In this document: one piece after another, positions 1 to 63,461 of the stretch
How the letters are laid out: every line of letters starts with the position of its first letter
Numbering within the stretch: position 1 is the stretch's first letter
Origin: Squalus acanthias
Taxonomy: Eukaryota
Direction: 5' to 3'
NCBI GenBank assembly: GCA_030390025.1
Contig: JASTWF010000033.1
Location: 4,590,001-4,654,000, forward strand
Length of the DNA: 64,000 bases
Translations under genes and position numbers: made by a program
Notes under the pieces: generated by a model
Told to the model about the DNA's origin: nothing
Seen by the model: only the letters and a program-made list of their open reading frames with translations
Databases searched by the model: none

Positions 1-499
1 TTCCGCACTCATGAAGACGGTCTCAATCGGGATCTTGGGTTTATGTCACGATACATGACGTGATCCGGACTCGAGTCGTCGTTGGCTTGTTCACAGATGT
101 GATTCCCAGTAAAAAAGTAAAAATTTTAAAGTTAATCGTTTTACATACAGACGGCAGCTTTTGACACGTTAGACCCCATGCGATTCCACCTCATTGTCTC
201 AGTTGTATCTTGCTATGTCTTTGATGTGGTACCTTCCTGGCTGACCTGATTAACTTTATCACACCTCGGCAGATAAACAGTCAGGATGATTGAATTCAGT
301 TGTCTGCAATTGTAAGTTACACATGCATTGTTCTCTATCTATATATGCTTTGACGATTCTGTATCTCCTCACTTCACCCGACGAAGGAGTTGTAACTCCG
401 AAAGCTTGTGATTTAAAATAAAACTGTTGGACAATAACTTGGTGTTGTGCGACCTCTCAATTTTGTCCACCCGAGTCCAACACCGGCATCTCCGCATCA
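1..499 (+). repeat. 5' pseudo-LTR (cut by the window edge)
   Basis: Matches 3115-3613 at offset 3114, about 5 substitutions by eye (103, 382, 425, 433, 473). Confidence 0.95.
374..411 (+). ncRNA. Minimal type I hammerhead ribozyme (5' pLTR)
   Basis: TCAC-CCGACGA-A-GGAGT-TGTA-ACTCC-GAAAGCTT-GTGA: stem I TCAC/GTGA, CYGANGA core, stem II, GAAA, palindromic AAGCTT. Confidence 0.75.
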
Positions 500-3177
500 T
501 GACCACTATCGACACCACAAACTGCCGGCTCAAAGTGGAGAGAATCGCCAAGAAGATCGCGCATATCGACACCGACATCAAGTATCTACAGAGATGCAAG
601 AAAGCAGACAAGATCCCGAAAGGACTACAGATCACGAACCCACTCAAGTCGACATACAACACAGACTACGCTGAGAGACTCTGCCGTCGTACCTCTCGCA
701 CACTCCTTAACCATCTCGTACACCAGCTCTACAGCAAACGCCACAACCTCGAAACCAAGATAGAGTCCATGCTCTCAGCCTGTGCTCAGAACACAGCAGA
801 CCAGTTACGAGACACCGCCAAACAGTCGAGGCAATGGAACTACGCTGCCTATATGCGCATCAAGAACAGGAAGCTTGAGAAACTCGGCATCACCACCAGC
901 AGCAACCAAGCCTCCCCCGGTACCACGGCTGCAACCAAAGGGAAGTCCATCGTCAATTTGTCCGACCATACCCTTCAACCAGACGAAATCGAAGTTCTCG
1001 CCCTAGGGCTCAAGTTCTGCCCAACCACCAAAATGGACCCCATTGGTCTCGCGGCAGACACGGAGAAATTCATCAGGAGAATGAGGCTCCGGGAATACTT
1101 CCACAAATCCCAAGATGTCAGCAACAAACCCAATGAGACAATCAATGATCCAGAACAGCAGACAGAGGGACTCGCAGTGCAGCAACCGAAGAAAAAAGAG
1201 TCAAACTGGACCCCTCCGGAGGGTCGATGCCCCAAGCTTGACATGTATGCTCAAGCTGTCAGGAGATGCATCAACGCCAGATTCATCAGCCGCACTCACA
1301 AGACAGTCCAGAATGTCACCCGAGTACAACGCAACGCCATCCACGCTCTCAAGACCAACCGCAACATTGTCATCAAACCAGCGGACAAAGGAGGAGCCAT
1401 CGTCATACAGAACAGAATGGACTATTGTAAAGAAGCAAACCGACAACTGGACAACCTGGAACACTACAGACAGCTACCCGCAGATCCGACCAAAGAACAC
1501 ACCCGCCAACTCAATAGACTGATCAAGACCTTCGATCCAGACCTTCAAAACATCCTACGCGCTCTCATCCCACGTACTCCCCACGTGGGAGACTTCTACT
1601 GCCTCCCAAAGATACACAAAGCCAACACACCCGGACGTCCTATCGTATCAGGCAATGAAACCCTGTGTGAGAACCTCTCTGGATATGTCGAGGGCATTCT
1701 GAAACCCATCGTACAGGGAACCCCCAGCTTCTGTCGTGACACTACAGACTTCTTACAGAAACTCAGCACCCACGGACCAGTTGAACCAGGAACACTCCTC
1801 GCCACGATGGACGTATCGGCACTCTACACCAGTATCCCCCACGATGACGGCATCGCTGCGACAGCCTCAGTACTCAACACCAACAACAGCCAATCTCCAG
1901 ACGCCATCCTACAACTCATCCGCTTCATCCTTGACCACAGTGTCTTCACCTTCGACAACCATTTTTTTACCCAAACACACGGAACAGCCATGGGGACCAA
2001 ATTCGCACCCCAATACGCCAACATCTTCATGCACAAGTTCGAGCAAGACTTCTTCACTGCACAGGACCGCCAGCCAACGCTGTACACCAGATACATCGAC
2101 GACATTTTCTTCCTTTGGACCCATGGCGAAGGATCACTGAAAAGACTACACGATAACATAAACAAGTTCCATCCCACCATCAAACTCACCATGGACTACT
2201 CCTCAGAATCGGTTTCATTCCTGGACACACGAATCTCCATCAAAGACGGACACCTCAGCACTTCACTCTACCGCAAGCCCACGGACAACCTCACGATGCT
2301 CCACTTCTCCAGCTTCCACCCTAACCACGCTAAAGAAGCCATCCCCTATGGACAAGCCCTGCGAATACACAGGATCTGCTCAGACGAGGAGGAACGCGAT
2401 GGACACCTACGGACGCTGAAAAACGCCCTCATAAGAACGGGATATGACGCTCGACTCATCGATCGACAGTTCCGACGGGCCACAGCGAAAAATCGCATAG
2501 ACCTCCTCAGAAGGCAAACACGGGACACAACCAACAGGGTAGCCTACGTCGTCCAGTACTTCCCCGGAGCGGAGAAACTATGCCATGTTCTTCGCAGCCT
2601 TCAACATGTCATCGATGACGACAAACACCTCGCTAAGGCCATCCCCACGCCTCCACTACTTGCCTTCAAACAGCCGCCTAACCTCAGAAGTACCATCGTT
2701 CGCAGCAAATTACCCAGCTTTCAGGATAACAGCGACCACGACACCACACAACCCTGCCACGGCAAACTCTGCCAGACATCCCAGATCATCAACACAGATA
2801 CCATCATCACACGTGAGGACACTACCCACCAGGTACATGGTACATACTCATGTGACTCGGCCAACGTTGTCTACCTCATACGTTGCAGGAAAGAATGCAC
2901 CGCGGCATGGTACATCGGCAAGACCATGCAGACACTGAGACAACGTATGAACGAGCACCGCGCAACAATCACCAGGCAGGATTGTTACATCCCAGTCGGG
3001 GAACACTTCAGCAGTCAAGGACATTCAGCCTCGGATCTGCGGGTAAGCGTTCTCCAAGGCTGCCTTAGGAAAACACGACAGCGCAAAATCATCGAGCAGA
3101 AACTGATAGCCAAGTTCCGCACTCATGAAGACGGTCTCAATCGGGATCTTGGGTTTATGTCACGATACATGACGTGA
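499..3177 (+). CDS. Penelope-like polyprotein: N-terminal domain, reverse transcriptase, GIY-YIG endonuclease (892 aa)
   Basis: Uninterrupted ORF; motifs IKPADKGG, LPKIHK, PGRPIVS, MDVSALYTSIP, GTAMG, RYIDD, FLD, LYRKPT; endonuclease NVVYLIRC..WYIGKT..LRQRMNEH..HF..H..E..GLN. First ATG at 499 (the ORF track starts at an upstream TTG). Confidence 0.93.
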   Translation: MTTIDTTNCRLKVERIAKKIAHIDTDIKYLQRCKKADKIPKGLQITNPLKSTYNTDYAERLCRRTSRTLLNHLVHQLYSKRHNLETKIESMLSACAQNTADQLRDTAKQSRQWNYAAYMRIKNRKLEKLGITTSSNQASPGTTAATKGKSIVNLSDHTLQPDEIEVLALGLKFCPTTKMDPIGLAADTEKFIRRMRLREYFHKSQDVSNKPNETINDPEQQTEGLAVQQPKKKESNWTPPEGRCPKLDMYAQAVRRCINARFISRTHKTVQNVTRVQRNAIHALKTNRNIVIKPADKGGAIVIQNRMDYCKEANRQLDNLEHYRQLPADPTKEHTRQLNRLIKTFDPDLQNILRALIPRTPHVGDFYCLPKIHKANTPGRPIVSGNETLCENLSGYVEGILKPIVQGTPSFCRDTTDFLQKLSTHGPVEPGTLLATMDVSALYTSIPHDDGIAATASVLNTNNSQSPDAILQLIRFILDHSVFTFDNHFFTQTHGTAMGTKFAPQYANIFMHKFEQDFFTAQDRQPTLYTRYIDDIFFLWTHGEGSLKRLHDNINKFHPTIKLTMDYSSESVSFLDTRISIKDGHLSTSLYRKPTDNLTMLHFSSFHPNHAKEAIPYGQALRIHRICSDEEERDGHLRTLKNALIRTGYDARLIDRQFRRATAKNRIDLLRRQTRDTTNRVAYVVQYFPGAEKLCHVLRSLQHVIDDDKHLAKAIPTPPLLAFKQPPNLRSTIVRSKLPSFQDNSDHDTTQPCHGKLCQTSQIINTDTIITREDTTHQVHGTYSCDSANVVYLIRCRKECTAAWYIGKTMQTLRQRMNEHRATITRQDCYIPVGEHFSSQGHSASDLRVSVLQGCLRKTRQRKIIEQKLIAKFRTHEDGLNRDLGFMSRYMT

Positions 3178-3613
3178 TCCGGACTCGAGTCGTCGTTGGC
3201 TTGTTCACAGATGTGACTCCCAGTAAAAAAGTAAAAATTTTAAAGTTAATCGTTTTACATACAGACGGCAGCTTTTGACACGTTAGACCCCATGCGATTC
3301 CACCTCATTGTCTCAGTTGTATCTTGCTATGTCTTTGATGTGGTACCTTCCTGGCTGACCTGATTAACTTTATCACACCTCGGCAGATAAACAGTCAGGA
3401 TGATTGAATTCAGTTGTCTGCAATTGTAAGTTACACATGCATTGTTCTCTATCTATATATGCTTTGACGATTCTGTATCTCCTCACTTCACCCGATGAAG
3501 GAGTTGTAACTCCGAAAGCTTGTGATTTAAAATAAAACCGTTGGACTATAACTTGGTGTTGTGCGACCTCTCAATTTTGTCCACCCCAGTCCAACACCGG
3601 CATCTCCGCATCA
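3115..3613 (+). repeat. 3' pseudo-LTR
   Basis: Direct repeat of 1-499; overlaps ORF end and 3' UTR. Confidence 0.95.
3488..3525 (+). ncRNA. Minimal type I hammerhead ribozyme (3' pLTR)
   Basis: TCAC-CCGATGA-A-GGAGT-TGTA-ACTCC-GAAAGCTT-GTGA followed by AATAAA. Confidence 0.78.
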
Positions 3614-3851
3614 AGATAACTTGAACACAGACAAGCCCTGAATACACAGCTTTTGCTGTCTGTCTCTCTCTCTCACACACACAGACACAGCCAGCCTGCA
3701 AAATTGCCACAAATCACTGTCAGCAATGAAAGAAAGTTGATTTCTATCATTTCTCTGCTCTGCTTGGCAGTTTAAAAGCAAACAGACAGCTGTTTTCAGT
3801 ATTTTATCTTTTCAGTTTGCGGCCTACAGAAACAGGCTTTCTAATCTGCAT

Positions 3852-4112
3852 CAAAAGCAAATGCTGTGCATGTGGAAAATCTGAAATAAAATCAGAAAAT
3901 GCTGGAAATACTCAGGAGGTAAGGTAGCATCTGTGGAGAGAGAGAGAAACAGAGATAATGTTTCAGTTCGATTACCTTTTGTCAGATTCTGGCAAGGTTC
4001 TGACGAAAGGTCATCGAGCTGAAACATTTACTTTGTTTCTCTGTATCTCCACTGATGCTGCCTAACATACTGAGTATTTCCAGCATTTTTTGTTTTTATT
4101 TCTATTCTGCAT
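3852..4112. mobile_element. Palindromic non-autonomous element, probably inverted PLE pLTR ends, with two degenerate hammerhead motifs
   Basis: ~105-bp inverted arms 3882-3986 / 3999-4102; CTGACGA-AAGGTCATCGAGCT-GAAAC on + and CTGACAA-AAGGTAATCGAACT-GAAAC on -. Confidence 0.7.
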
Positions 4113-4679
4113 GTTGTCTTGATTTCATGTGTTTCTCTCAATGCCAGCCTACCTGCCTTATATTGATTTGAGTAGAGTGGAATAAAAAGAATGCAAAGAT
4201 CCCAAATAGCTTTTATTTTCAGACAGTCCACAAAGACATTTTTCGGTATTTCACTGACTGACTGTCTGTCTTGAATTAAAGTGAAATGAAATAAAGTGCA
4301 ATAAAGCGATACACAACAGCATTACATGTGGACCAGGCCAGAATGAAATCAATAGAGTTTAATACAACAACAGCAATTAATAAGACAGCAGACCACATCT
4401 CACACAAACACCAGCTTTTGCCCTTTCTCTCTCTCTCACACAGACACACTCACAGCCTGGCCAGTCTGCAGAGAGATGACTGCCGTGTTGGCTGATTAAA
4501 ATCAAAAAGACACTTTTCAGTATCTTATCTTTTCACTTTGTGACCTACAGAAACAGGCTTTCTGTTCTGCTACTTGCCTTTTGATTTCATGTCTCTCTCT
4601 CTCTCACTGACTCTCTGTCTGTCTTCCACTCACACAGACACCCTCCCACCCACATTGAACTAAAATTTACAGTAACATG

Positions 4680-4850
4680 ACACACACACTCACACAGACT
4701 CTGCAATTAGCAGACACACAGACACCCACGCACACAGACACACTCATACAGACTCTGCAATTTGCAGACACACAGACACCCACTCACTTACAGACACACT
4801 CACACAGTCTCTGCAATTTGCAGAAACTCAACTTCACACAGACACACAGT
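4680..4850 (+). repeat. CA-rich ~55-bp tandem repeat, 3 copies
   Basis: cacacagactctgcaatt(t/a)gcagacacacagacacccac recurs. Confidence 0.75.
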
Positions 4851-7800
4851 CTCCCTCTCAAACCATTCTCTCTCGCTCCCCAGTCTCTCGCTATCGCTCC
4901 GACAGTCTCTCTCTCTCTCTCTTACCATTCTCTCTCTCTCTCCAGTCTCTCTTTCTCCAGTCTCTCTCTCCCCTTTGTCTCTCTCACTCTCCCCAGTCTC
5001 TCTCTCTCTCTGCTCCAGTTCCTCTCTCTCCAGACTCTCTTTCTCCCAAGTCTCTCTAACTCTCTCCAGTCTCTGCCTCTCTCCAGTCTCTCTCTCCCCT
5101 CAGTCTCTCTCTCTCTCCCCAGTCTCTCTCTCTCCCAGTATCACTCTCTCTCCAGTCTCACTCTGTCCACAGTCTCTCTCTATCCCCTGTCTCACTCTCT
5201 ACAGTCTCTCTCTCTCCCCAATCTCTCTCTCTCCCCAATCTCTCTCTCTCCCTGTCTCACCCTCTCTCTAGTCTCTCTCTCTCCGCAGTCTCACTCTAAC
5301 ACTTGTCTCTCTCTGCCACAGTCTCTCTCCCTCTCTCACCCCCAGTCTCTCTCCCTCTGCTCCATTCTCTCGCTTTCTCTCCAGTATCACTCTCACTCCA
5401 GACTTTCTAAAATCCCCAGTCAAATTCTCTCCCCGTTCTCCAACTCTCGTTCAGTCTCTCTCTCTCTCCACAGTCTCTGTGTCTCACTCAGTTGCTCTCT
5501 CTCCCTGCTGTCTCTCTCTCTCTCTGACTGTTTTCTCTCTCTCCCCAGTCTCTCTCTCTCACCCCCAGTCTATCTCACTCCAGTCTCTTTCTCCCCCACA
5601 GTCTCCCTCTCAAACCATTCTCTCTCGCTCCCCCCTGTCTCTCGCTACCTCTCCGACAGTCTCTCTCTCTCCGACAATCTCTCTCTCTCTCTCTTACCAT
5701 TCTCTCTGTCTCTCCAGTCTCTCTTTCTCCAGTCTCTCTCTCTTTCCGCACTCCCTCTCCCCGAGGCTCTCTCACTCTCTCCAGTCTCTCTCTCCCCTAG
5801 TCTCTCTCTCTCTCTGCTCCAGAACCTCTCTCTCCAGACTCTCTTTATCTCCAGTCTCTCTCTCTCCCCAATCTCGCTCTCTCCCCAGTCCGTCACTATC
5901 CGCAGTCACTCTCTCTCCCCTGTCTCCCTCTCTGCATTCTCTCTCTCTCCCCAATCTCTCTCTCTCCCCTTTCTCTCTCTCTTCATTCTCTCTCTCTCCA
6001 ATCTCTCTCTACCCCAGTCTCCCTCTCGCTCCCCAGTCCCTCTCTCTTTCCCGAGACTCTCTCTCTCTCCGCCAGAGTCTCTCTCTCCCCGTCTCTCTCT
6101 CTCTATGCTCCAGTTTATCTCTCTCCAGTCTCTCTTTCTTTATAGCCTCTCTCTTAACCTAATCTATCTCTCTCCAAATCTCTCTGTCTCACCGGACTCG
6201 CTCTCCCACAGTCTCTCTCTCTCTCTCTCCCCATTCTCTCTCTCCCCCAGTCCATCTCTCTGTCCCTAGTCTCTCGCTCTCTGCTACAATTCCGCTCTCT
6301 CCAGTCTCGCTTTCTCTCCAGTCTCTCTCTCTCCCGAGTCTCTCTCTCTCTCCAAAGTCTCCCTCACCCCCAGTCTCTTTCTCTCCCACAGTCCCCCTTC
6401 TCTAACCATTCTCTCTCGCTCCCCAGTCTCTCTCACTCCGACATTCTTTCTCTCTCTCTAGACTCTCTTTTCCAATCTCTCTCTCTCCAGTCTCTGTCCC
6501 CTAATCTCTCTCTCTCTCTCCCCAGTCTCACTCTTCCCAGTCTCTCTCTCTCTGCTCCAGTTGCTCTCTCTCTCGACTCTCTTTCTCTCATGTCTCACTC
6601 TCTCTCTCCAATCTCTCTCTCTGCCCAGTCTCTCTCTCTCCCAGTCTCACTCTCTCTCCAGTCTCTCTCTCTCTCACCAGTCTCCCTCTCTCACTGCTTT
6701 CTATCTCACCCCTTATCACTCTCTCTGCCCAGTCCATCTCTCTGTCCATAGTCTCTCGCTCTCTCCTACAATTCCTCTCTCTCCAGTCTCGCTTTTTCTC
6801 CAGTCTCTCTCTCTCCCGAGTCTCTCTCTCTCCAAAGTCTCTCTCAACCCCGTCTCTTTCTCTCCCACAGACCCCCTCTCTAAAATTCTCTCTCGCTCCC
6901 CAGTCTATCTCTCCGACAGTCTCTCTCTCTCCCCATTCTTTCTCCCTCTCTCGACTCTCTTTTCCAATCTCTCTTATTCCAGTCTCTTTCCCCTAGTCTC
7001 TCTCTCTCTCCCCAGTCTCACTCTCCCCAGTCTCTCTCTCTCTGCTCCAGTTGTTCTCTCCCAAGACTCTCTTTCTCTCCAGACTCTCTTTCTCTCCAGT
7101 CTCTCTCTCCCCAGTCTACTCTCTCCCCAGTCTCTCTCTCTGCTCCAGATCCTCTCTCTTCAGACTCTCTTTCTCTCCAGTCTCTCTCCCTCCCCAATCT
7201 CTTCCTCTCCCCAGTCTCTCTCTCTCTCTCTCTCCCAGTCTCACTCTCTCTCCAGTCTCTCTCTCTCCCTGATATCTCTCTCTGCCCAGTCTCTCTCTCT
7301 CCCAGTCTCACTCTCTCTCCAGTCTCTCTCTCTCCCTCATCTCTCTCTCTGCCCAGTCTCTCTCTCTCCCTCATCTCTCTCTCTGCCCAGTCTCTCTCTC
7401 TCCCAGTCTCACTCTCTCTCCAGTCTCTCTCTCTCCCTGATCTCTCTCTCTTCCCAGTCTCTCTCTCTCCCACTCTCACTCTCTCCAGTCTTTCTCTCTC
7501 CCAGTCTCACTCTATCCCCTGTGTTCAATCTCTCCAGTCTCTCTCTCTCCCCAATCTCTCTCTCCCCCCAGTCTCTCTCTCTCCCCAGTCTCTCTTTCTC
7601 CCCAGTCTCTCTCTCACTCCCCAGTCTCACTCTCTCTCCCCAGTCTCACTCTCTCTCCGGTCTCTCTCTGTCCGCAGTCTCTCTCTATCCCCTGTGTTCA
7701 CTCTCTCCAGTCTCTCTCTCTCCCCAGTCTCTCTCTCTCCCCAATCTCTCTCTCCCCAGTCTCTCTCTATCTCTCTCCCCAATCTCTCTCTCTCTCCCCA

Positions 7801-10551
7801 GTCTCTCTCTCTCCCCATTCTCTCTCTCTCTCTCCCCAGTCTCTCTCACTCCAGTCTCTTTCTCTCCCACAGTCTCCCTCTCAAACAATTCTCTCTAGCT
7901 CTCCAGTCTCTCGCTATCGCTCCGACAGTCTCTCTCTCTCCGACAGGCTCTGTCTTACCATTCTCTCTCTCTCTCTCCATGCTCACTCTCCCCTAGTCTC
8001 TCACTCTCCCCAGTCTCTCTCTCTGCTCCAGTTCCTCTCTCTCCAGACTCTCTTTCTCTCCAGTCTCTCAGTCTCTCTCTCTCCCTCATCTCTCTCTCTG
8101 CCCAGTCTCTCTCTCTCCCTCATCTCTCTCTCTGCCCAGTCTCTCTCTCTCCCAGTCTCACTCACTCTCCAGTCTCTCTCTCTCCCTGATAAATCTCTCT
8201 GCCCAGTCTCTCTCTCTCCCACTCTCACTCTCTCTCCAGTCTTTCTCTCTCCCAGTCTCACTCTATCCCCTGTGTTCACTCTCTCCAGTCTCTCTCTCTC
8301 CCCAATCTCTCTCTCCCCCCAGTCTCTCTCTCTCCCCAGTCTCTCTTTCTCCCCAGTCTCTCTCTCACTCCCCAGTCTCACTCTCTCTCCCCAGTCTCAC
8401 TCTCTCTCCAGTCTCTCTCTGTCCGCAGTCTCTCTCTATCCCCTGTGTTCACTCTCTCCAGTCTCTCTCTCCCCAGTCTCTCTCTATCTCTCTCCCCAAT
8501 CTCTCTCTCTCCCCAGTCTCTCTCTCTCCCCATTCGCTCTCTCTCTCTCCCCAGTCTCTCTCACTCCAGTCTCTTTCTCTCCCACAGTCTCCCTCTCAAA
8601 CAATTCTCTCTCGCTCCCCAGTCTCTCGCTATCGCTCCGACAGTCTCTCTCTCTCCGATAGGCTCTCTCTTACCATTCTCTCTCTCTCTCCAGGCTCACT
8701 CTCCCCTAGTCTCTCACTCTCCCCAGTCTCTCTCTCTCTGCTCCAGTTCCTCTCTCTCCAGACTCTCTTTCTCTCTAGTCTCTCTCTCTCCCCAATCTCT
8801 CTCTCTGCCCAGTCTCTCTCTCTCCCAGTCTCACTCTCTCTCCATCTCTCTCTCTCCCCACTCTCTCTCTCTCCCAGTCTCGCTCTCACTCCAGTCTCTC
8901 TCTCTCTCCACAATATCTCTCTATCCCCTGTCTCACTCTCTCCAGTCTCTCTCGCTCCCCAATCTCTCTCTCTCCCCAGTCTGCAACTCCCAGTCTCTCT
9001 CTCTCTCTCCAATCTCTCTCTCTCAGCAGTCACTCTCTCCCACCTGTCTTTCTCTGTCCATTCTCTCTCTCCCCAGTCTCTCTCTCTCTCCCCTGTCTCT
9101 CTCTCTCCATTCTCTCTCTCTCTCTCTCCAGTCTCTCTCTCCCCTGTCTCTCTCTCTCCATTCTCTCTCTCTCCAAGTCTCTCTGTCTCACCGGCCTCGC
9201 TCTCCCACAGTCTCTCTCTCTCCCCATTCTCTCTCTCCCACAGTCCCTCTCTCTCACCAGTCTCAATCTCTCTGCTCCAGTTCCTCTCTCTCCAGACTCT
9301 CTTTCTCTCCAGTCTCTCTCTCTCCCCAATCTCTCTCTCTCCCCAGTCTCTCTCTATCCCCTGTCTCTGTCTGCCCCAGTCTCTCTCCCTCTCTCACCCC
9401 CAGTCTCTCTCCCTCTGCTCCATTCTCTCGCTTTCTCTCCAGGCTCACTCTCACTCCAGACTTTCTATTTCCCCAGTCTCATTGTCTCCCCATTTTCTAT
9501 CTATCGTTCAGTCTCTCTCTCTCCACAGTCTCTGTGTCTCCCTCAGTTTCTCTCTCTCTGCCGTCTCTCTCTCTCTCTCCGACAATCTTACTCTCTCTCC
9601 CCATTCTCTCTCTCTCTCACCCCCAGTCTCTCTCACTCCAGTCTCTTTCTCTCCCACAGTCTGCCTCTCAAACCATTCTCTCTCGCTCTCCAGTCTCTCG
9701 CTATCTCTGTCTCCCCCAGTCCCTCTCTCTCACCAGTCTCCCTCTCTCACTGCATTCTATCTTGCCCCTAATCCCTCTCTCTCCCCCAGGCTATCTCTCT
9801 CTCCCCAGTCTATCTCACTCTGCTCCAGCCTCTCTCTCTAGTCTCGCTTTCTCCCCATTCTCTCTCTCTCTCCCTAATCACTCTCTCTTTCCACAGTCTC
9901 TCTCACCCCCAGTCTCTCTCTCTCCAGTCTCCCTCTCCCCAGTCTCTTACCCGCCCGCAGTCTCCCACTCACTCCAGTCCTTCTCTCTCCCCCATTATTT
10001 ATCTCCCTCCAGGCTCTCTCACTCCGACAGTCTCGCTCTCTCTACCCATTCTCTCTCTCCTCCAGTCTCGATCTCTCCAGTCTCTATCTCTCCCCCAGTC
10101 GAACTCTCTCTCACATTTCTCACTCCCACCCATCTCCCTCTGTCTCCAGTATCTCTCTCGCCAAGTATCTCTCTCCGTCTCCAGTCCCTCTCTCTTCCCA
10201 GTCACTCTCTCCAGTCTCTCTCCCTCCCACAGTCTCTCTCACTATCGCAATTCTCTCTCTCTCCCAAAGCATCTCTCTCCAGACATCTCTCTCTCCAGAT
10301 TCTCTCTCCCCGTCTCTCTCATCTCCCCCTGTCCCACTATCTCTCCCCAGTCTTTCTCTCTCTCTCTGCCCAGTCTCTCCCTCACCCCCAGTCTCTTTCT
10401 CTCTGCTACAGTCTCGCTCACTCTCTCCAGTCTCAATCTCACTCCAGTCTTTCTTTCTCCCCAATCACACCCTCTCCCTATTCTCTCTCTCTCTTACCAA
10501 ATCTCTCTCACTCCAGTCTCTCTCGCTCCCCAGTCTCTCGCTCTCTCTCCG

Positions 10552-12808: not shown

Positions 12809-14082
12809 AACATAAGAACATAAGAACATAAGAAATAGGAGCAGGAGTAGGCCAATCGGCCCCTCGAGCCTGCTCCGCCATTCAATAAGATCATGGCTGA
12901 TCTGATCCTAACCGCCAATCTACTATCTATCACAGAACCATCTCCTGCATCTAACAGAATTGCACACACAAAATAGGAGCAGAATCAGGCTACACAGTCC
13001 CTGGGCCCGCTCCACTACCCACAGGGCCATGACCGATCCGAACCTAGACTCATGTCCAAATTCCTGCCCGCTCCCCGTAACCCTTAATGCCCTTTACTTC
13101 TAGGAAACTGTCTATTTCTGTTTTAAATTTAATTAATGTTGTAGCTTCTACAGCTTTTTGTGGCAGCATATTCCATGGACCTACCACCCTCTGAGTGAAG
13201 TAGTTCCTCCTCATCTCAGTTTTGAAAGAGCAGCCCCTTATTCTAAGACTATGTCCCCTAGTTCTCGTCTCACCCGTCATCGGGAACATCCTCCCCGCAT
13301 CCACCCGATCCAACCCCTTCACAATCTTATATGTTTCAATAAGATCGCCTCTCATTCTTCTGAACTCCAATGAGTAGAGTCCCAATCTACCCAACCTCTC
13401 CTCATATGACCACCCCCTCATCCCCGGGATTAACCGAGTGAACCTTTTTTGCACTGCCTCGAGAGCAAGGATGTCTTTCCTTAAGTAAGGACACCAAAAC
13501 TGTATGCAGTATTCCAGGTGCGGTCTCACCAATACCTTGTACAACTGAAGCAATACCTCCCTATTTTTATATTCTATCCCCCTAGCAATGAAAGCCAACA
13601 TTCCATTTGCCTTCTTAATCACTTGCTGCACCTGCATACTAACCTTTTGAGTTTCGTGCACCAGGACCCCCAGATCCCTTTGCACTTCAGTACTCTCCAG
13701 TTTCTTGCCATTAAGATAATAAATTGCTCTAGGATTTTTCCTGCCAAAGTGCATCACCTCACACTTTCCAGTGTTGTATTCCATCTGCCAAATCTCTGCC
13801 CACTTACTTAGCCTGTCTATGTCCCCTTGCAGGTTTTTTATGTCCTCCTCACTCACTACTTTCCCTCCCATCTTAGTATCATCTGCAAATTTTGATATGT
13901 TACACTTGGTCCCTTCCTCCAAATCGTTAATATAGATTGTAAAGAGTTGGGGACCCAGCACTGACCCCTGTGGAACACCACTAGTTACTGATTGCCAGTC
14001 TGAGAATGAACCATTTATCCCAACTCTTTGCTTTCTGTTAGATAGCCAATCCTCTATCCATGCCAGAATATTACCCCCAATC
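12809..14082 (-). mobile_element. 5'-truncated young CR1 LINE (C-terminal RT, 3' UTR, (TTCTTATG)n tail)
   Basis: Open frame IGGNILAWIE..SGVPQGSVLGP..KFADDTK..RPHLEYC; aacataag repeats at left end. Confidence 0.95.
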
Positions 14083-17000
14083 TTCAGACTCTCTTTCTCT
14101 CCAGTCTCTCTCTTTACCCAATCTCTCCATCTCCCCAAACTCTCTCCCCCATTCTCTCTCTCTCTCTCTCTCCAGTCTCTCACTGTCCATATTCTGTCTC
14201 TCTATCCCCAGTCACGTTCTCTCGCCCGAGTCTCTCTTACTCTCTCCGGCTGACTCTCTCTCCCCAGTATCTCTCTCTCTCTGCTGCAGTTTATCACTCT
14301 GCTGTCTCTCTTTCTCTATAGTCTATCTCTCTCTCCCCAATTTATTTTCTCCCAGTCTCTCTGTCTCTCCGGACTTTCTCTCCCACAGTCTCTCTCCCTC
14401 TCCCCATTCTCCGTCTCCCCCAGACCCTCTCTCTCACCAGTCTCCCTCTCTCACTGCTTTCTATCTTGCCCCTAATACCTCTCTCTCCCCAAGTCTATCT
14501 CTCTCCCCCCAGTCTATCTCACTCTGCTCCAGCCTCTCTCTCCAGTCTCGCTTTCTCTCCCTAATCACTCTCACTTTCCACAGTCTCTCTCACCCCCAGT
14601 CTCTCTCTCTCCAGTCACCCTCTCCCCAGTATTTTACCCTCCCCATTCTCCAACTCACTCCAGTCCCTCTCTCTCCCCCATTATTTCTCTCCCTCCAGGC
14701 TCTCTCACTCCGACATTCTACCTCTCTCACCATTCTCCCTCTCTCCCCTTGACACTCACTTCTCTCCACTCTCTCTCTCCGACAGTCTCTCTCTCTCTCC
14801 CCCAATTCGCTCTCTCCCCATGTCTCTCTCTCTCACCCTGGCTCTCTCTGTCTCCAGTATCTCTCTCCCCAATCCCGCTCTCTCTCTCTAGTCTCTCTCT
14901 CTATCGCCATTCTCTCTCTCTTCCAAAGTCATTCCCTGTCTCCCCATTCTCTCTCTCTCCCCTGTCTCTCATCTCTCCAGTCTACTGTCTCTCCAGTCTC
15001 TCTCTCCCGCAGACTCTCTCTCCGTTTCTGCCCAGACCCTCACTCTCTCCCCGTCTCTCCCTGTCCCTCAGTATCTTTCGCTGCTCCAGTCTCTATCTCT
15101 CTCTCCAGTCCCACACTCTATCCAGTCTTTCTATCTCCCCAACCACACTCTCTCCCCATTCTCTCTCTCTCGCTCAGTCTATCTCTTTCTCCAGTCTCTC
15201 TCTCCCCAGTCTCTCTCTCTCTCCAATTTATCTTCTCCCAGTCTCTCTGTCTCTCCGGACTTTCTCTCCCACAGTCTCTCTCCCTCTCCCCATTCTCTGT
15301 CTCCCCCAGTCCCTCACTCTCAGCAGTCTCGCTCTCTCACTGCTTTCTATCTTGCCCCTAATCCCTCTCTCTCCCCCCGTCTATCTCTCTCTCCCCAGTC
15401 TATCTCACTCTGCTCCAGCATCTCTCTCCAGTCTCGCTTTCTCTCCATTCTCTCTCTCTCTCTAATCACTCTCTCTTTCCACAGTCTCTCTCACCCCCAG
15501 TCTCTCTCTCTCCAGTCACCCTCTCCCCAGTCTTTTGTCCCTCCCCAGTCTCCAACTCACTCCAGTCCCTCTCTCTCCCGCATTATTTCTCTCCCTCCAG
15601 GCTCTCTCACTCCGACATTCTACCTCTCTCACCATTCTCCCTCTTTCCCCTTGACACTCTCTTCTCTGCACTCTCTCTCTCCGACAGTCTCTCTCTCTCT
15701 CCCCCCATTCGCTCTCTCCCCATGTCTCTCTCTCTCACCCTTTCTCTCTCTGTCTCCAGTATCTCTCTCCCCAATCCCGCTCTCTCTCTAGTCTCTCTCT
15801 CTATCGCCATTCTCTCTCTCTTCCAAAGTCATCCCCTGTCTCCCCATTCTCTCTCTCTCCCCTGTATCTCATCTCTCCAGTCTACTGTCTCTCCAGTCTC
15901 TCTCTCCCGCAGACTCTCTCTCTTTTTCTGCCCAGTCCCTCACCCTCTCCCCGTCTCTCCCTGTCCCTCAGTATCTTTCGCTGCTCCAGTCTCTATCTCT
16001 CTCTCCAGTACCACACTCTATCCAGTCTTTCTATCTCTCCAACCACACTCTCTCCCCATTCTCTCTCTCTCGCTCAGTCTATCTCTTTCTCCAGTCTCTC
16101 TCTCCCCAGTCTCTCTCTCTCCCCAAGTTTCTCTCTCTCTCCAGTCTATCTCTCTCCGACAGTCTCCCTCTCTTTCCCCATTCTCTCTCTCTCACCCAAT
16201 CTCTCTCTCCCCGGTCTCTCTCTCTCTCCAAGTCCCTCTCTCTGCAGACTCTCTCTCCCACAGTCTCTCGCTCTCCTCCTATTGTCTCTCTCCCCCAATC
16301 CATCTCTGTCACCAGTCTCTCTCTGTCTGCTTTCTATCTTTCCCTAGTCCCTCTCACTCTCCAGTCTCTCTCTACCCCTGTCTCACACTCCTCCAGCCTA
16401 TCTCTCCCCAGTCTCTATATCACCCCAGTCTCTCCCACCACCAGTCTCTCTTTATCTCCAGTCTCTCTCTCTCCGCTGTCTCCCTCTCTCTCCCCAGTCT
16501 CTCTCTTTCCCTCAGTCACTCTCTTTAGCCAGTCTCTCTCTCCCCCAGCCTCTCCCGCTCTCTCCCAATATTGCACTCCCTGGTATCTCTCTATCCCTAA
16601 TCATTCACTCTACCCCAGTCTATCTCTCTCTCCAGTCTCACTCTCTCTCCAGTCTTTCTATTTCCCCAATCACACTGTCTCCCCATTTTCTCTCAGTTGC
16701 TCAGTCTCTCTCTCTCTCCAGTCTCTCTCTCTCCGACAGTCTATCTCTCTCTCCCCATTCTCTCTCTCACCCCAGTCTCTCTCTCTCCATTCTCTTTCTC
16801 TCCCACAGTCTCCCTCACTCACCATTCTCTTTCTTTCCCCAGGTTCTCTCTCACCAGTCCGACTCTCCCTGGCAGTATCTCTCTCTCTTCCCCCCCGCCC
16901 ATTCTCTCTCTCTCTCTCCGCAGTCAAACCATCTCCAGTGTCTCTCTCTCAGTCTTTCTCTCTCAAATTTCCCTCTCAATCTCCCCAGTCCCTTTCTCTC

Positions 17001-40629: not shown

Positions 40630-42366
40630 ACTGATTGAATTGGTACTAAGTAAAATAATGGGACTCAAGGCGGATAAATCCCCTGGACCTGATGGCTCAC
40701 ATCCTAGGGTCTTGAGAGAAGTGGCAGTAGCAATTGTGGATGGTTTGGTAATAATGTTCCAAAACTCCCTGAACTCAGCAAAGGTCCCGGCAGATTGGAA
40801 AACTGCTAATGTAACACCCTTATTTAAAAAGGGTTGTAGGCAGAAGGCTGGAAATTATAGACCAGTTAGCCTAACATCTGTGGTGGGTAAAATTTTGGAG
40901 TCTATTATTAAGGAGACAGTAACGGAACATTTAGATAAACATAATTTAATAGGACAAAGTCAGCATGGCTTTATGAAGGGGAATCATGTCTGACAAATTT
41001 GCTCGAGTTCTTTGGGGACATAACGTACAGGGTGGATAAAGGGGAACCAGTGGACGTAGTGTATTTAGACTTCCAGAAGGCATTCGACAAGGTGCCACAT
41101 AAAAGATTATTACTCAAGATAAAAAATCACTGGATTGGGGGTAATATTCTGGCATGGGTGGAGGATTGGTTATCTAACAGGAAGCAGAGAGTTAGGATAA
41201 ATGGTTCATTCTCAGACTGGCAAACAGTAGCCAGTGGTGTTCGGCAGGGGTCGGTGCTGGGTCCCCAACTCTTTACAATCTATATTAACGATTTGGAGGA
41301 GGGGACCGAGTGTAACATATCAAAGTTTGCAGATGATACAAAGATGGGAGGGAAAGTAGAGAGTGAAGAGGACATAAAAAACCTACAAGGGGATATAGAC
41401 AGGCTGGGTGAGTGGGCACAGATTTGGCAGATGCAATACAATATTGGAAAATATGAGGTTATGCACTTTGGCATGAAAAATCGGAGAGCAAGTTATTATC
41501 TTAATGGCGAGCAACTGGAAAGTACTGCAGTTCAAAGGGATCTGGGGGTCTTGGTGCAAGAAAATCAAAAAGTTAGTATGCAGGTGGAGCAGGTGATCAA
41601 GAAAGCCTATGTACTGTTGGCTTTTATTGCTAGGGGGATAGAATATAAAAACAGGGAGGTATTGCTGCAGTTGTATAGGGTATTGGTGAGACCGCACCTG
41701 GAGTACTGCATACAGTTTTGGTGTCCATACTTAAGAAAATACATACTTGCTCTCGAGGCAGTACAAAGAAGGTTCACTCGGTTAATTCCGGGAATGAGGG
41801 GGTGGACATACAAGGAGAGGTTGAGTAGATTGGGACTCTACTCATTGGGGTTCAGAGGAATGAGAGGCGATCTTATTGAAACATATAAGATTGTGAAGGG
41901 GCTTGATCGGGTGGACGCGGTGAGGATGTTCCCAATGATGTGTGAAACTAGAACTAGGGGACATAATCTTAGAATAAGGGGCTCCTCTTTCAAAACTGAG
42001 ATGAGGAGAAACTTTTTCACTCGGAGGGTAGTGGGTCTGTGGAATTTGCTACCCCAGGAAGCTGTGGAAGCTACTTCATTAAATAAATTTAAAACAGAAA
42101 TAGACCGTTTCCTAGAAGTAAAGGGTATCAGGGGTTACGGGGAGCGGGCTGGAAATTGGATATGAGTTTGAGTTCGGATCGGTCAAGGCCCTGTGAGTGG
42201 CGGAGCGGGCCCAGGGGCCGAGTGGCCTGGTCCTGCTCCTGCTTCTTGTGTTCTTTAGAGTTGAGGTTGGATCAGATCAGCCATGATCTCATTGAATGGC
42301 GGAGCAGGCTCGAGGGGCCGATTGGTCTTCTCCCCCTCTATTTCTTATGTTCTTATGTTCTTATGT
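40630..42366 (+). mobile_element. 5'-truncated CR1 LINE, same subfamily as 12809-14082; one frameshift near 40980
   Basis: ORFs 40616-40993 and 40999-42165 (DKSPGPDG, YLDFQKAFDKVPH, FADD); (TTCTTATG)n tail. Confidence 0.95.
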
Positions 42367-62053: not shown

Positions 62054-63461
62054 GGGCTCAGTTGGTAGAAAACTCACCTCTGAGTCAGAAGGTTGTGTAT
62101 TCAATTCCACTCCAACGACGTGAGTACAAAAATCAAGGATGACACTCCAGTCCAGCATTTAGGGAGCGCGGCACTGTCAGAGGGTCAGTACTGGAAGGGA
62201 GCGCCGCACTGTCGGAGGGGCAGTACTGATGGAGCGCTGCACTGTCGGAGGGTCCGTACTGGAGGGAGCGCTGCACTGTCGGAGGGGCAGTATTGAGGGA
62301 GCCCGCACTGTCGGAGGGCAGTACTGATGGAGCGCTGCACTGTCGGAGGGGCAGTACTGAGGGAGCGCTGCACTGTCGGAGGGGCAGTACTGATGGAGCG
62401 CTGCACTGTCGGAGGGACAGTACTGAGGGAGCGCTGCACTGTCGGAGGGGCAGTATTGAGGGAGCCCCTCACTGTCGAGGGCAGTACTGATGGAGCACTT
62501 GCACTGTCAGGAGGGGCAGTACTGAGGGAGCGCTGCACTGTCGGAGGGGCAGTACTGATGGAGCGCTGCACTGTCGGAGGGTCAGTACTGAGGGAGCGCT
62601 GCACTGTCGGAGGGACATTACTTGAGGGAGTGCTGCACTGTCGGAGGGGCAGTAATGAGGGAGTGCAGCACTGTCGGATGGGCAGTAATGAGGGATCGCT
62701 GTACTGTTGGAGGGTGAGTACTGAGGGAGCGCTGCACTGTCGGAGGGGCAGGAATGTGGGAGTGCAGCACTGTCGGGTGGGCAGTAACTGAGGGTGAACT
62801 GCACTGTCGGAGGGACAGTAATGAGGATGCGCTCTGCTGTTGGAGGGACAGGGGAGCAATGCATTGTCGGAGGGACAGTATTGACGGAGCGCTGCACTGT
62901 CAGAGTAAAAGTACTGAGGGAGCGCTCTACTGTTGCCGAGGCAGTACTGAGGGAGCGATGCACTGTCGGAGGGGCAGTACTGAGGGAGAGCTGCTCTGTC
63001 GGAGGGCTGTACTGAGGGAGCGATGCACTGCCGGATGGTCAGTACTGAGGGAGCACTGTATTCGCAGAGGGGCATTACTGAGTTAGCGCTGCGCTGTTGT
63101 AGGTGCATTACTGAGGAGACTGTCCTTTCGGAGGGATCTGATTTAGGATGCGACGTTAAACCGAGGCCTGTTTGCTCTCTCTCAGGTGAATGTAAAAGAT
63201 CCCATGGCAATATTCGAAGAAGAGCAGTAGAGTTATCCTTAGTGTTCTGGTCAATATTTATCTCAATCAACATCACTAAAACAGATGACTTGGTCGTAAT
63301 TGCCATGCTGTTTGTGGGAACTTTCTATTTTACAAACTGCCTGCCGTGTTTCCTGGAGTGCAACACAGACTTCACTTCACCAGTACTTCTTTGGCTCTAA
63401 AGTGCTTTGCGTCATCCCAAGGTCGTTAAAGGCGCTCTATAAATGCAAGTTTTTCTTTCTT
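62054..63461 (+). mobile_element. Deu-type SINE with an internal minisatellite expansion
   Basis: Head ggctcagttggtag..; body resumes ~63130 (acgttaaaccgaggcc..aaagatcccatggc); L2-like tail ggcgctctataaatgcaagt. Confidence 0.88.
62150..63130 (+). repeat. 33-bp GC-rich minisatellite (gcagtactgagggagcgctgcactgtcggaggg), ~29 copies
   Basis: Period read at 62351/62384. Confidence 0.95.

Follow-up and report, generated by a model that had tools for sequence, protein, structure and literature searches.

A heritable U4C core variant of the minimal hammerhead motif in a Penelope-like element of Squalus acanthias

The closest described systems are the minimal hammerhead ribozymes (min-HHRs) of Penelope-like elements (PLEs), for which Cervera and De la Pena (2014, PMC4209133), in the part of that paper drawn on here, give an extra base between positions 9 and 10.1 and a palindromic 15.2-16.2 as general traits, together with weak cleavage that takes place only in multimers. 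Small hammerhead variants with a diminished stem III (Lunse, Weinberg and Breaker; RNA Biol 14:1499) are also PLE-linked and cleave as dimers, as summarised in an excerpt of PMC6765202. For the Poseidon element PAc of Anolis carolinensis, the sections of Frangieh et al. (2024, PMC11167929) used here describe a hammerhead that cuts only with its protein, ribozyme-dead mutants that insert normally in vitro with uncut RNA as the main substrate, and no RNA-seq ends found at the cut site; Naiad elements thrive without canonical hammerheads (excerpt of PMC8557442). Within the hammerhead core, U4 touches the phosphate that joins A6 to N7 (excerpt of PMC3088659), and a saturation study of a tertiary-stabilised hammerhead assigned low activity to nearly all CUGA-turn changes except the C3-G8 swap (excerpt of PMC9901934). 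A viroid U4C variant (Ambros and Flores 1998, as cited in PMC3088659), the viroid being PLMVd according to a citation in PMC3884650, was much slower in vitro yet infectious.

We analysed a window of 64,000 nucleotides of Squalus acanthias DNA, which opens with a PLE insertion whose two flanking repeats each carry a hammerhead motif (Table 1). Both PF00078 (reverse transcriptase, RT) and PF01541 (GIY-YIG) scored above cut-off in the single ORF, identifying an EN+ PLE, and the closest named relatives of the ORF product were shark proteins with 79-92% identity. The 5′ and 3′ repeats showed 8 differences in 626 nt. The insertion combines a partial tandem forming pseudo-LTRs (pLTRs), an inverted 5′-truncated copy and a tail at one end, which is the typical PLE arrangement (excerpt of PMC8557442). 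Upstream of the window, the piece of ORF end is followed by the inverted truncated repeat, which holds a third C4 motif on the minus strand (L001:903-1044, N7 = T) and is split by a GC-rich insert; this insert of about 740 bp (L001:161-903) has 15-bp imperfect terminal inverted repeats and looks like a non-autonomous DNA transposon. Of the 45 matches translated from the loci, 44 had the linker zinc finger CX4CxxC, the last Cys of which is changed in the window copy. A CX2-5CxxC linker between RT and EN marks Neptune or Nematis, not Poseidon (excerpt of PMC8557442); the linker thus marks the element, at the level of translated sequence, as probably of the Neptune or Nematis clade and sets its protein family apart from Poseidon, and the vertebrate host would favour Neptune over Nematis.

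Table 1 Coordinates of the element and of its hammerhead motifs (window numbering unless a locus is named).
Feature	Position	Strand	Basis or remark
5′ repeat (pseudo-LTR of partial tandem)	1..499	+	extends 127 nt upstream of window as piece of ORF end
5′ repeat minimal type I hammerhead motif	374..411	+	sequence read, folding, descriptor match
Stem I, 5′ motif (UCAC / GUGA)	374-377 / 408-411	+	sequence read
First core box, 5′ motif (C378-C379-G-A-C382-G-A384)	378-384	+	C3-C4-G5-A6-C7-G8-A9
Core position 4 = C (U4C)	379	+	forms CpG with G5
Extra unpaired A between core and stem II	385	+	sequence read
Stem II, 5′ motif (GGAGU / ACUCC, loop UGUA)	386-390 / 395-399	+	5 bp, 4-nt loop
Second core box GAAA	400-403	+	followed by GCUU 404-407
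Self-complementary AGCU (15.1-16.1; candidate 4-bp intermolecular stem III) and U17	403..407	+	predicted cut after 407, from numbering
U1.7 and AATAAA	414..422	+	414, candidate partner of last loop II A; 417-422, 10 nt past predicted cut
Open 892-aa frame: reverse transcriptase, linker zinc-finger motif, C-terminal GIY-YIG endonuclease	499..3177	+	
3′ repeat including tail	3115..3613	+	tail ends 92 nt past predicted cut
3′ repeat hammerhead motif	3488..3525	+	C4 at 3493, T at N7 (3496), predicted cut after 3521
Right copy of 12-bp direct repeat flanking whole insertion, candidate target-site duplication	3614..3625	+	left copy L001:120-131

A duplicate of window positions 1944-5084, host flank included, lies about 2.1 Mb away (L002, G000:C2561) with 99.1% identity, and represents either a segmental duplication or an uncollapsed allele. 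Elsewhere in the window we observed a 104-nt inverted repeat (3883-4102; 86% complementary, 12-nt spacer) that is probably a small repeat element and gave weak microRNA-model matches far under cut-off, a long CT-rich array that runs from 4830 to beyond 8000 and repeats about every 17 nt, and four ATG-started frames of 268-373 aa (13050-13871, 15722-16528, 41344-42165 and 62185-63306).

An earlier note, made from the letters of this stretch, had described a variant minimal hammerhead in both pLTRs with the core CCGAYGA and one unpaired A before a GGAGT/ACTCC stem II, the copies differing only at N7. This description was borne out at both sites: the motifs lie 3,114 nt apart and N7 is their sole internal difference. 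The C/T difference does not hold as evidence of function: it is a CpG change, and the 99.1% identical duplicate has C there. Covariation of N7 with C4 was likewise ruled out (N7 is C in 93 of 96 C4 copies, T representing CpG decay), and pair counts from the two window copies were uninformative, no pair being variable.

Set against the min-HHR definition of Cervera and De la Pena, the motif is of type I with a stem I of 4 bp in both copies (3-7 bp in the definition); retains the C3-G8 pair, G5, A6, A9, G12-A14 and A15.1-U16.1; has an extra base after A9, a stem II (3-7 bp) opening with G-C and a loop within 3-10 nt; continues as GAAANNUH with palindromic NN (GAAA-GC-U-U); and sits in the flanking repeats of a PLE. 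Its first core box is CCGAYGA, not CUGANGA. The type I order, short stem I, G10.1-C11.1, missing loop 3 and one copy per repeat about 3 kb apart are all shared with the motifs described in the consulted part of PMC4209133, in which GCUU after GAAA also occurs in the turtle and in one rotifer entry. All 56 of the 56 motifs in Fig. S3 of that paper have U4, but the descriptor used there demands cuganga and C4 copies are therefore invisible to it; the core variant that its available text reports is U3-A8, not C4. For PLE motifs, an extra A, a GC palindrome and U17 had all been published before, and only U4C is unusual; our literature search, which did not extend to the text of Lunse et al. 2017, found no PLE C4/U4C hammerhead. 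The viroid U4C hammerhead carries the same core change, but as a rare variant of a monomeric, tertiary-stabilised ribozyme (excerpts of the papers cited above), whereas here U4C occurs in a stem-III-less motif with U17 that has been copied thousands of times in a vertebrate genome. Judged by its sequence, the window motif is a derived variant apparently descended from U4 relatives, not a consensus min-HHR member.

The minimum-energy fold of the 38-mer consists of exactly stems I and II (−8.8 kcal/mol), a stability that is unremarkable (17 and 7 of 200 shuffles fold equally well), and the hammerhead fold is lost from the predicted minimum of the 91- and 141-nt contexts. With position 4 relaxed to C or U, a minimal-hammerhead descriptor matched only at 378 and 3492 across both strands of the 64 kb, with 1 match in 1,000 dinucleotide shuffles of positions 1-3613; a strict U4 descriptor (CUGANGA) had zero matches in the window. 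Rfam returned 5 matches in positions 1-5000 at E ≤ 10, none of them to a hammerhead family, and may not model stem-III-less motifs.

We counted exact motif patterns over the 3.7-Gb assembly, where reversed-pattern controls gave 0. This yielded 3,619 C4 motifs (2,583 + 1,036) and 41,421 U4 motifs (29,528 + 11,893), counts that refer to motifs and not to insertions, many of which carry two; C4 accounts for 8% of the counted motifs and is outnumbered by U4 by about 11 to 1. In the window's own subfamily, defined by its own stem II, C4 prevails (856 C4 vs 222 U4), and the first 100 motifs listed of the 1,032 in a sister subfamily contained 3 U4, 2 T7, 1 A8 and 1 T5, which is at decay level. C4 was found with at least ten stem II/loop forms, although a minority of these motifs may have arisen by sporadic mutation within large U4 families. 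In contigs of public runs, C predominates at 379 in two runs of organism A as well as in some of the contigs from other runs, T being found in others; U4C is hence not an assembly error. It is heritable and not private to the window locus. The earlier note had staked its reading on whether the consensus has CUGA with U4C confined to this locus, and had asked whether U4C is fixed across copies: CUGA is indeed the commoner form, but U4C is neither private nor fixed. The genome-wide total of about 45,000 exact matches to one hammerhead motif family exceeds the 4,000-9,000 min-HHRs that the available part of PMC4209133 gives for coelacanth and frog.

Among 173 sampled copies (96 C4, 77 U4), the extra A and U1.7 were present in all, and the last base of loop II was A in 164. 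The GC at 15.2-16.2 was found in 96/96 C4 and 75/77 U4 copies, and the stem I pairing UCAC/GUGA in 95/96 and 71/77, respectively. The stem II closing pair varied among the 96 C4 copies (U-A 45, U-G 29, C-G 17, C-A 5). Loop II centres are often self-complementary (GU, GC, AU, AUCGAU, ACGU), both in the window (386-399) and in sister subfamilies, and the window stem-loop II can pair with a second copy as a full 14-bp duplex. AATAAA lies within 25 nt in 171/173 copies, and recurs in the window at 3531-3536, again 10 nt past the predicted cut; with AATAAA downstream of it, cleavage would part the upstream RNA from its poly(A) signal.

The history of C4 was examined in a main tree of the 54 of 171 copies with at least 450 nt of upstream match, the ribozyme columns being left out; among 20 further C4 loci, 11 could be aligned upstream and 5 reached the length needed for a tree. 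An 81-row tree that kept the ribozyme columns had unsettled bootstrap values and a 35-row tree was intermediate, and the argument rests on the 54-row tree. Here, 50 rows form a 100/100 group apart from four U4 rows, and three C4 rows are basal within that group; the next clade (100/98) comprises C4 subfamilies, a large U4 family with an AUCGAU loop, and a 100/97 clade that includes the window and holds 18 C4 and 6 U4 rows. A single C4 clade was rejected (p-AU 0.00036). With U4 taken as ancestral (the universal consensus) and the root assumed, these sequence relationships suggest that C4 arose once, lasted through several young subfamilies and reverted to U4 at least twice. Because C4 and G5 form a CpG, a return to U4 is the likeliest single mutation at that site; alternatively, the large U4 family may have acquired its ribozyme by recombination. 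Some of the other C4 copies, with AGC or GGGGC stems, may have arisen sporadically by mutation within U4 families.

The C4 subfamilies are young, with mean pairwise distances of 0.011-0.016, and differ in loop II and in the stem II closing pair, which indicates that C4 outlasted several source replacements. Within the window subfamily the U4 branch is younger (mean distance 0.009, 13 pairs) than the C4 part (0.016, 103 pairs) and often has U4 in both arms of one insertion, so that U4 must have travelled on the RNA. The large U4 family nested among the C4 lines grew to about 11,900 matches. A general displacement of C4 by U4 lines over time was not borne out: C4 subfamilies are on the whole no older than U4 ones, the AGUAA C4 subfamily (0.011) being as young as the large U4 family (0.013).

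We then compared substitutions on the C4 background. Changes at the catalytic-site CpGs (G5A 45, G8A 41) are scattered over the subfamilies at decay level, and the free-site change C7T numbers 110. In the flanks, CpG decay is balanced between the strands (33:33 in 1,797 site-copies), against which the C7T versus G8A asymmetry gave a Fisher p of 0.002; against context-matched controls the C7T:G8A excess was not significant (p = 0.26 and 0.10). Constraint within the C4 subfamilies was also not significant (1/30 vs 27/295 variable columns, p = 0.24), a comparison that is circular, since the search patterns fixed those columns. In two 100-match samples, the return to U4 was the sole core change amplified into a sub-lineage. 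These substitution patterns offer weak evidence for continued selection on the C4 motif. A loop II-U1.7 contact raises the rate of a different ribozyme, with AGUA and AAUA among the best of 23 loops (excerpt of PMC11875169), and both loops are present in C4 sister subfamilies; by analogy, the kept U1.7 and last loop II A would be the partners of this rate-raising contact, which we regard as a lead and not a result.

With respect to the cleavage model, the earlier note had suggested that two ribozymes pair through AAGCTT. The palindromic stem III idea is standard for dimers, but full AAGCUU pairing would tie up A14 and the cleavage nucleotide U17, both of which must stay free; stem III is thereby limited to AGCU, and in hammerhead numbering only A403-G-C-U406 could form it as a shared helix. 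Nearest-neighbour energies gave −18.3 kcal/mol for the stem-III double hammerhead versus 2 × −9.6 for the monomers, and −28.4 kcal/mol for a strand-swapped duplex without stem III, the most stable dimer; the swapped-stem I topology is a valid nested structure. The stem-III dimer is thus predicted to be energetically marginal, which fits the PAc hammerhead cutting only with its protein (excerpt of PMC11167929). A role of the self-complementary loop II in driving dimerisation was discarded: any hairpin can swap in this way, and the swapped duplex builds no stem III.

Copy ends were located relative to the predicted cut. None of the 173 sampled copies ends within 20 nt of it and all run past it, with 87 ends at +50-59 and 65 at +90-109. 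A linear 408-3521 RNA would hold the RT start sites at its 5′ end, and so could not template the sampled copies unless circularised. The template is, from the sequence, presumably an uncut RNA or a re-ligated circle, either of which gives a partial tandem and between which the sequence does not distinguish. The unit of about 3114 nt put forward in the earlier note was accordingly right in its spacing, but a linear product of that kind could not have served as template for these copies. A read-depth step near 396 was rejected as a cleavage sign, because it coincides with the start of the alignment of other subfamilies and not with the predicted cut. PAc shows a similar layout in the sections of PMC11167929 used here, with a hammerhead at the repeat-ORF junction and a tail between two end sites; its internal RT start 85-92 nt past the cut (+111-118 minus +26) matches the end cluster at 90-100 nt here. 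The PAc ORF begins inside the ribozyme, whereas here the first ATG lies 92 nt past the predicted cut.

Thousands of recent C4 copies show that U4C did not stop the element from spreading. With confidence that stands at about even, we read U4C as a heritable change, likely of single origin in a source element, that left a likely slowed but usable ribozyme dependent on protein or dimer. Two motifs would exchange their stem I strands and build a common stem III of 4 bp from AGCU, and the RT-endonuclease protein would hold this marginal fold; with C4, position 4 would contact the A6-N7 phosphate less strongly and the rate would fall, a loss that the loop II-U1.7 contact may offset in part. Slow cutting might be tolerated because reverse transcription begins about 50-60 or 90-100 nt past the cut and needs an uncut or re-ligated (circular) RNA, while CpG deamination or exchange with U4 relatives would occasionally restore U4 in lines that also spread. 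It is rather unlikely, though a serious contender, that U4C instead effectively kills catalysis, that insertion needs no cleavage and that the returns to U4 are CpG decay that hit a source element, the motif surviving for the time being because little time has passed, because it overlaps the poly(A) signal and a protein-binding region, or as plain structure. The mostly low activity of CUGA-turn mutants (excerpt of PMC9901934), the unaffected in vitro insertion of hammerhead mutants with no lizard RNA-seq ends at the cut (excerpt of PMC11167929), the lack of significant constraint inside the C4 lines and the 0/173 copies ending at the cut all point this way, but 41,421 relatives hold the full consensus while their loops vary, neither G5A nor G8A was amplified, the viroid remains viable with U4C (excerpt of PMC3088659), and the stem II closing pair shifted from C-G to U-A within the C4 lines.

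Two further explanations keep cutting relevant and assign C4 another role. C4 RNAs could be cut in trans by U4 relatives, the partner's core cutting each strand and C4 free-riding on the larger U4 pool; C4 and U4 subfamilies do not differ in stems I and III, the U4 pool is about 11 times more numerous, and the swapped topology is available as a nested structure, but both motifs of one transcript are C4, cis pairing should beat trans, and the dimer is marginal in energy, which together make this improbable. We are equally doubtful that U4C is a favoured damper, in which slower cutting spares uncut template with RT start sites downstream of the cut. Inclusion of sequence 3′ of the cut in 173/173 copies, the survival of C4 at a mutable CpG through several subfamilies and the use of uncut RNA as main in vitro substrate by the lizard element (excerpt of PMC11167929) are what a damper would lead one to expect; against it, C4 makes up so small a share of the counted motifs, U4 lines nested among C4 expanded, one of them to ~11,900 matches, and the U4 branch of the window subfamily is the younger (0.009 vs 0.016). 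There is a slim chance that a PLE lineage reached several thousand copies through successive sources with a crippled core, rescued by protein or by U4 relatives, and regained U4 at least twice. If true, the crippled-core lineage would amount to a replicated natural experiment in which a PLE ribozyme was knocked down and rescued within one genome and, where the rescue came from relatives, the first transposon ribozyme free-riding on them in trans.

What appears to be new here is a heritable U4C in a PLE ribozyme; the kind of system, the extra A, the palindrome and U4C in a viroid were known. A descriptor that insists on CUGANGA overlooks thousands of motifs in a single genome. The finding bears on whether PLE hammerheads must cut for movement, given that all canonical PLEs carry them, that they act weakly in vitro, that insertion in one cell-free assay did without them and that Naiads lack them: the near-identical young subfamilies that differ at one core base are natural pairs for the comparison of cleavage and retrotransposition.
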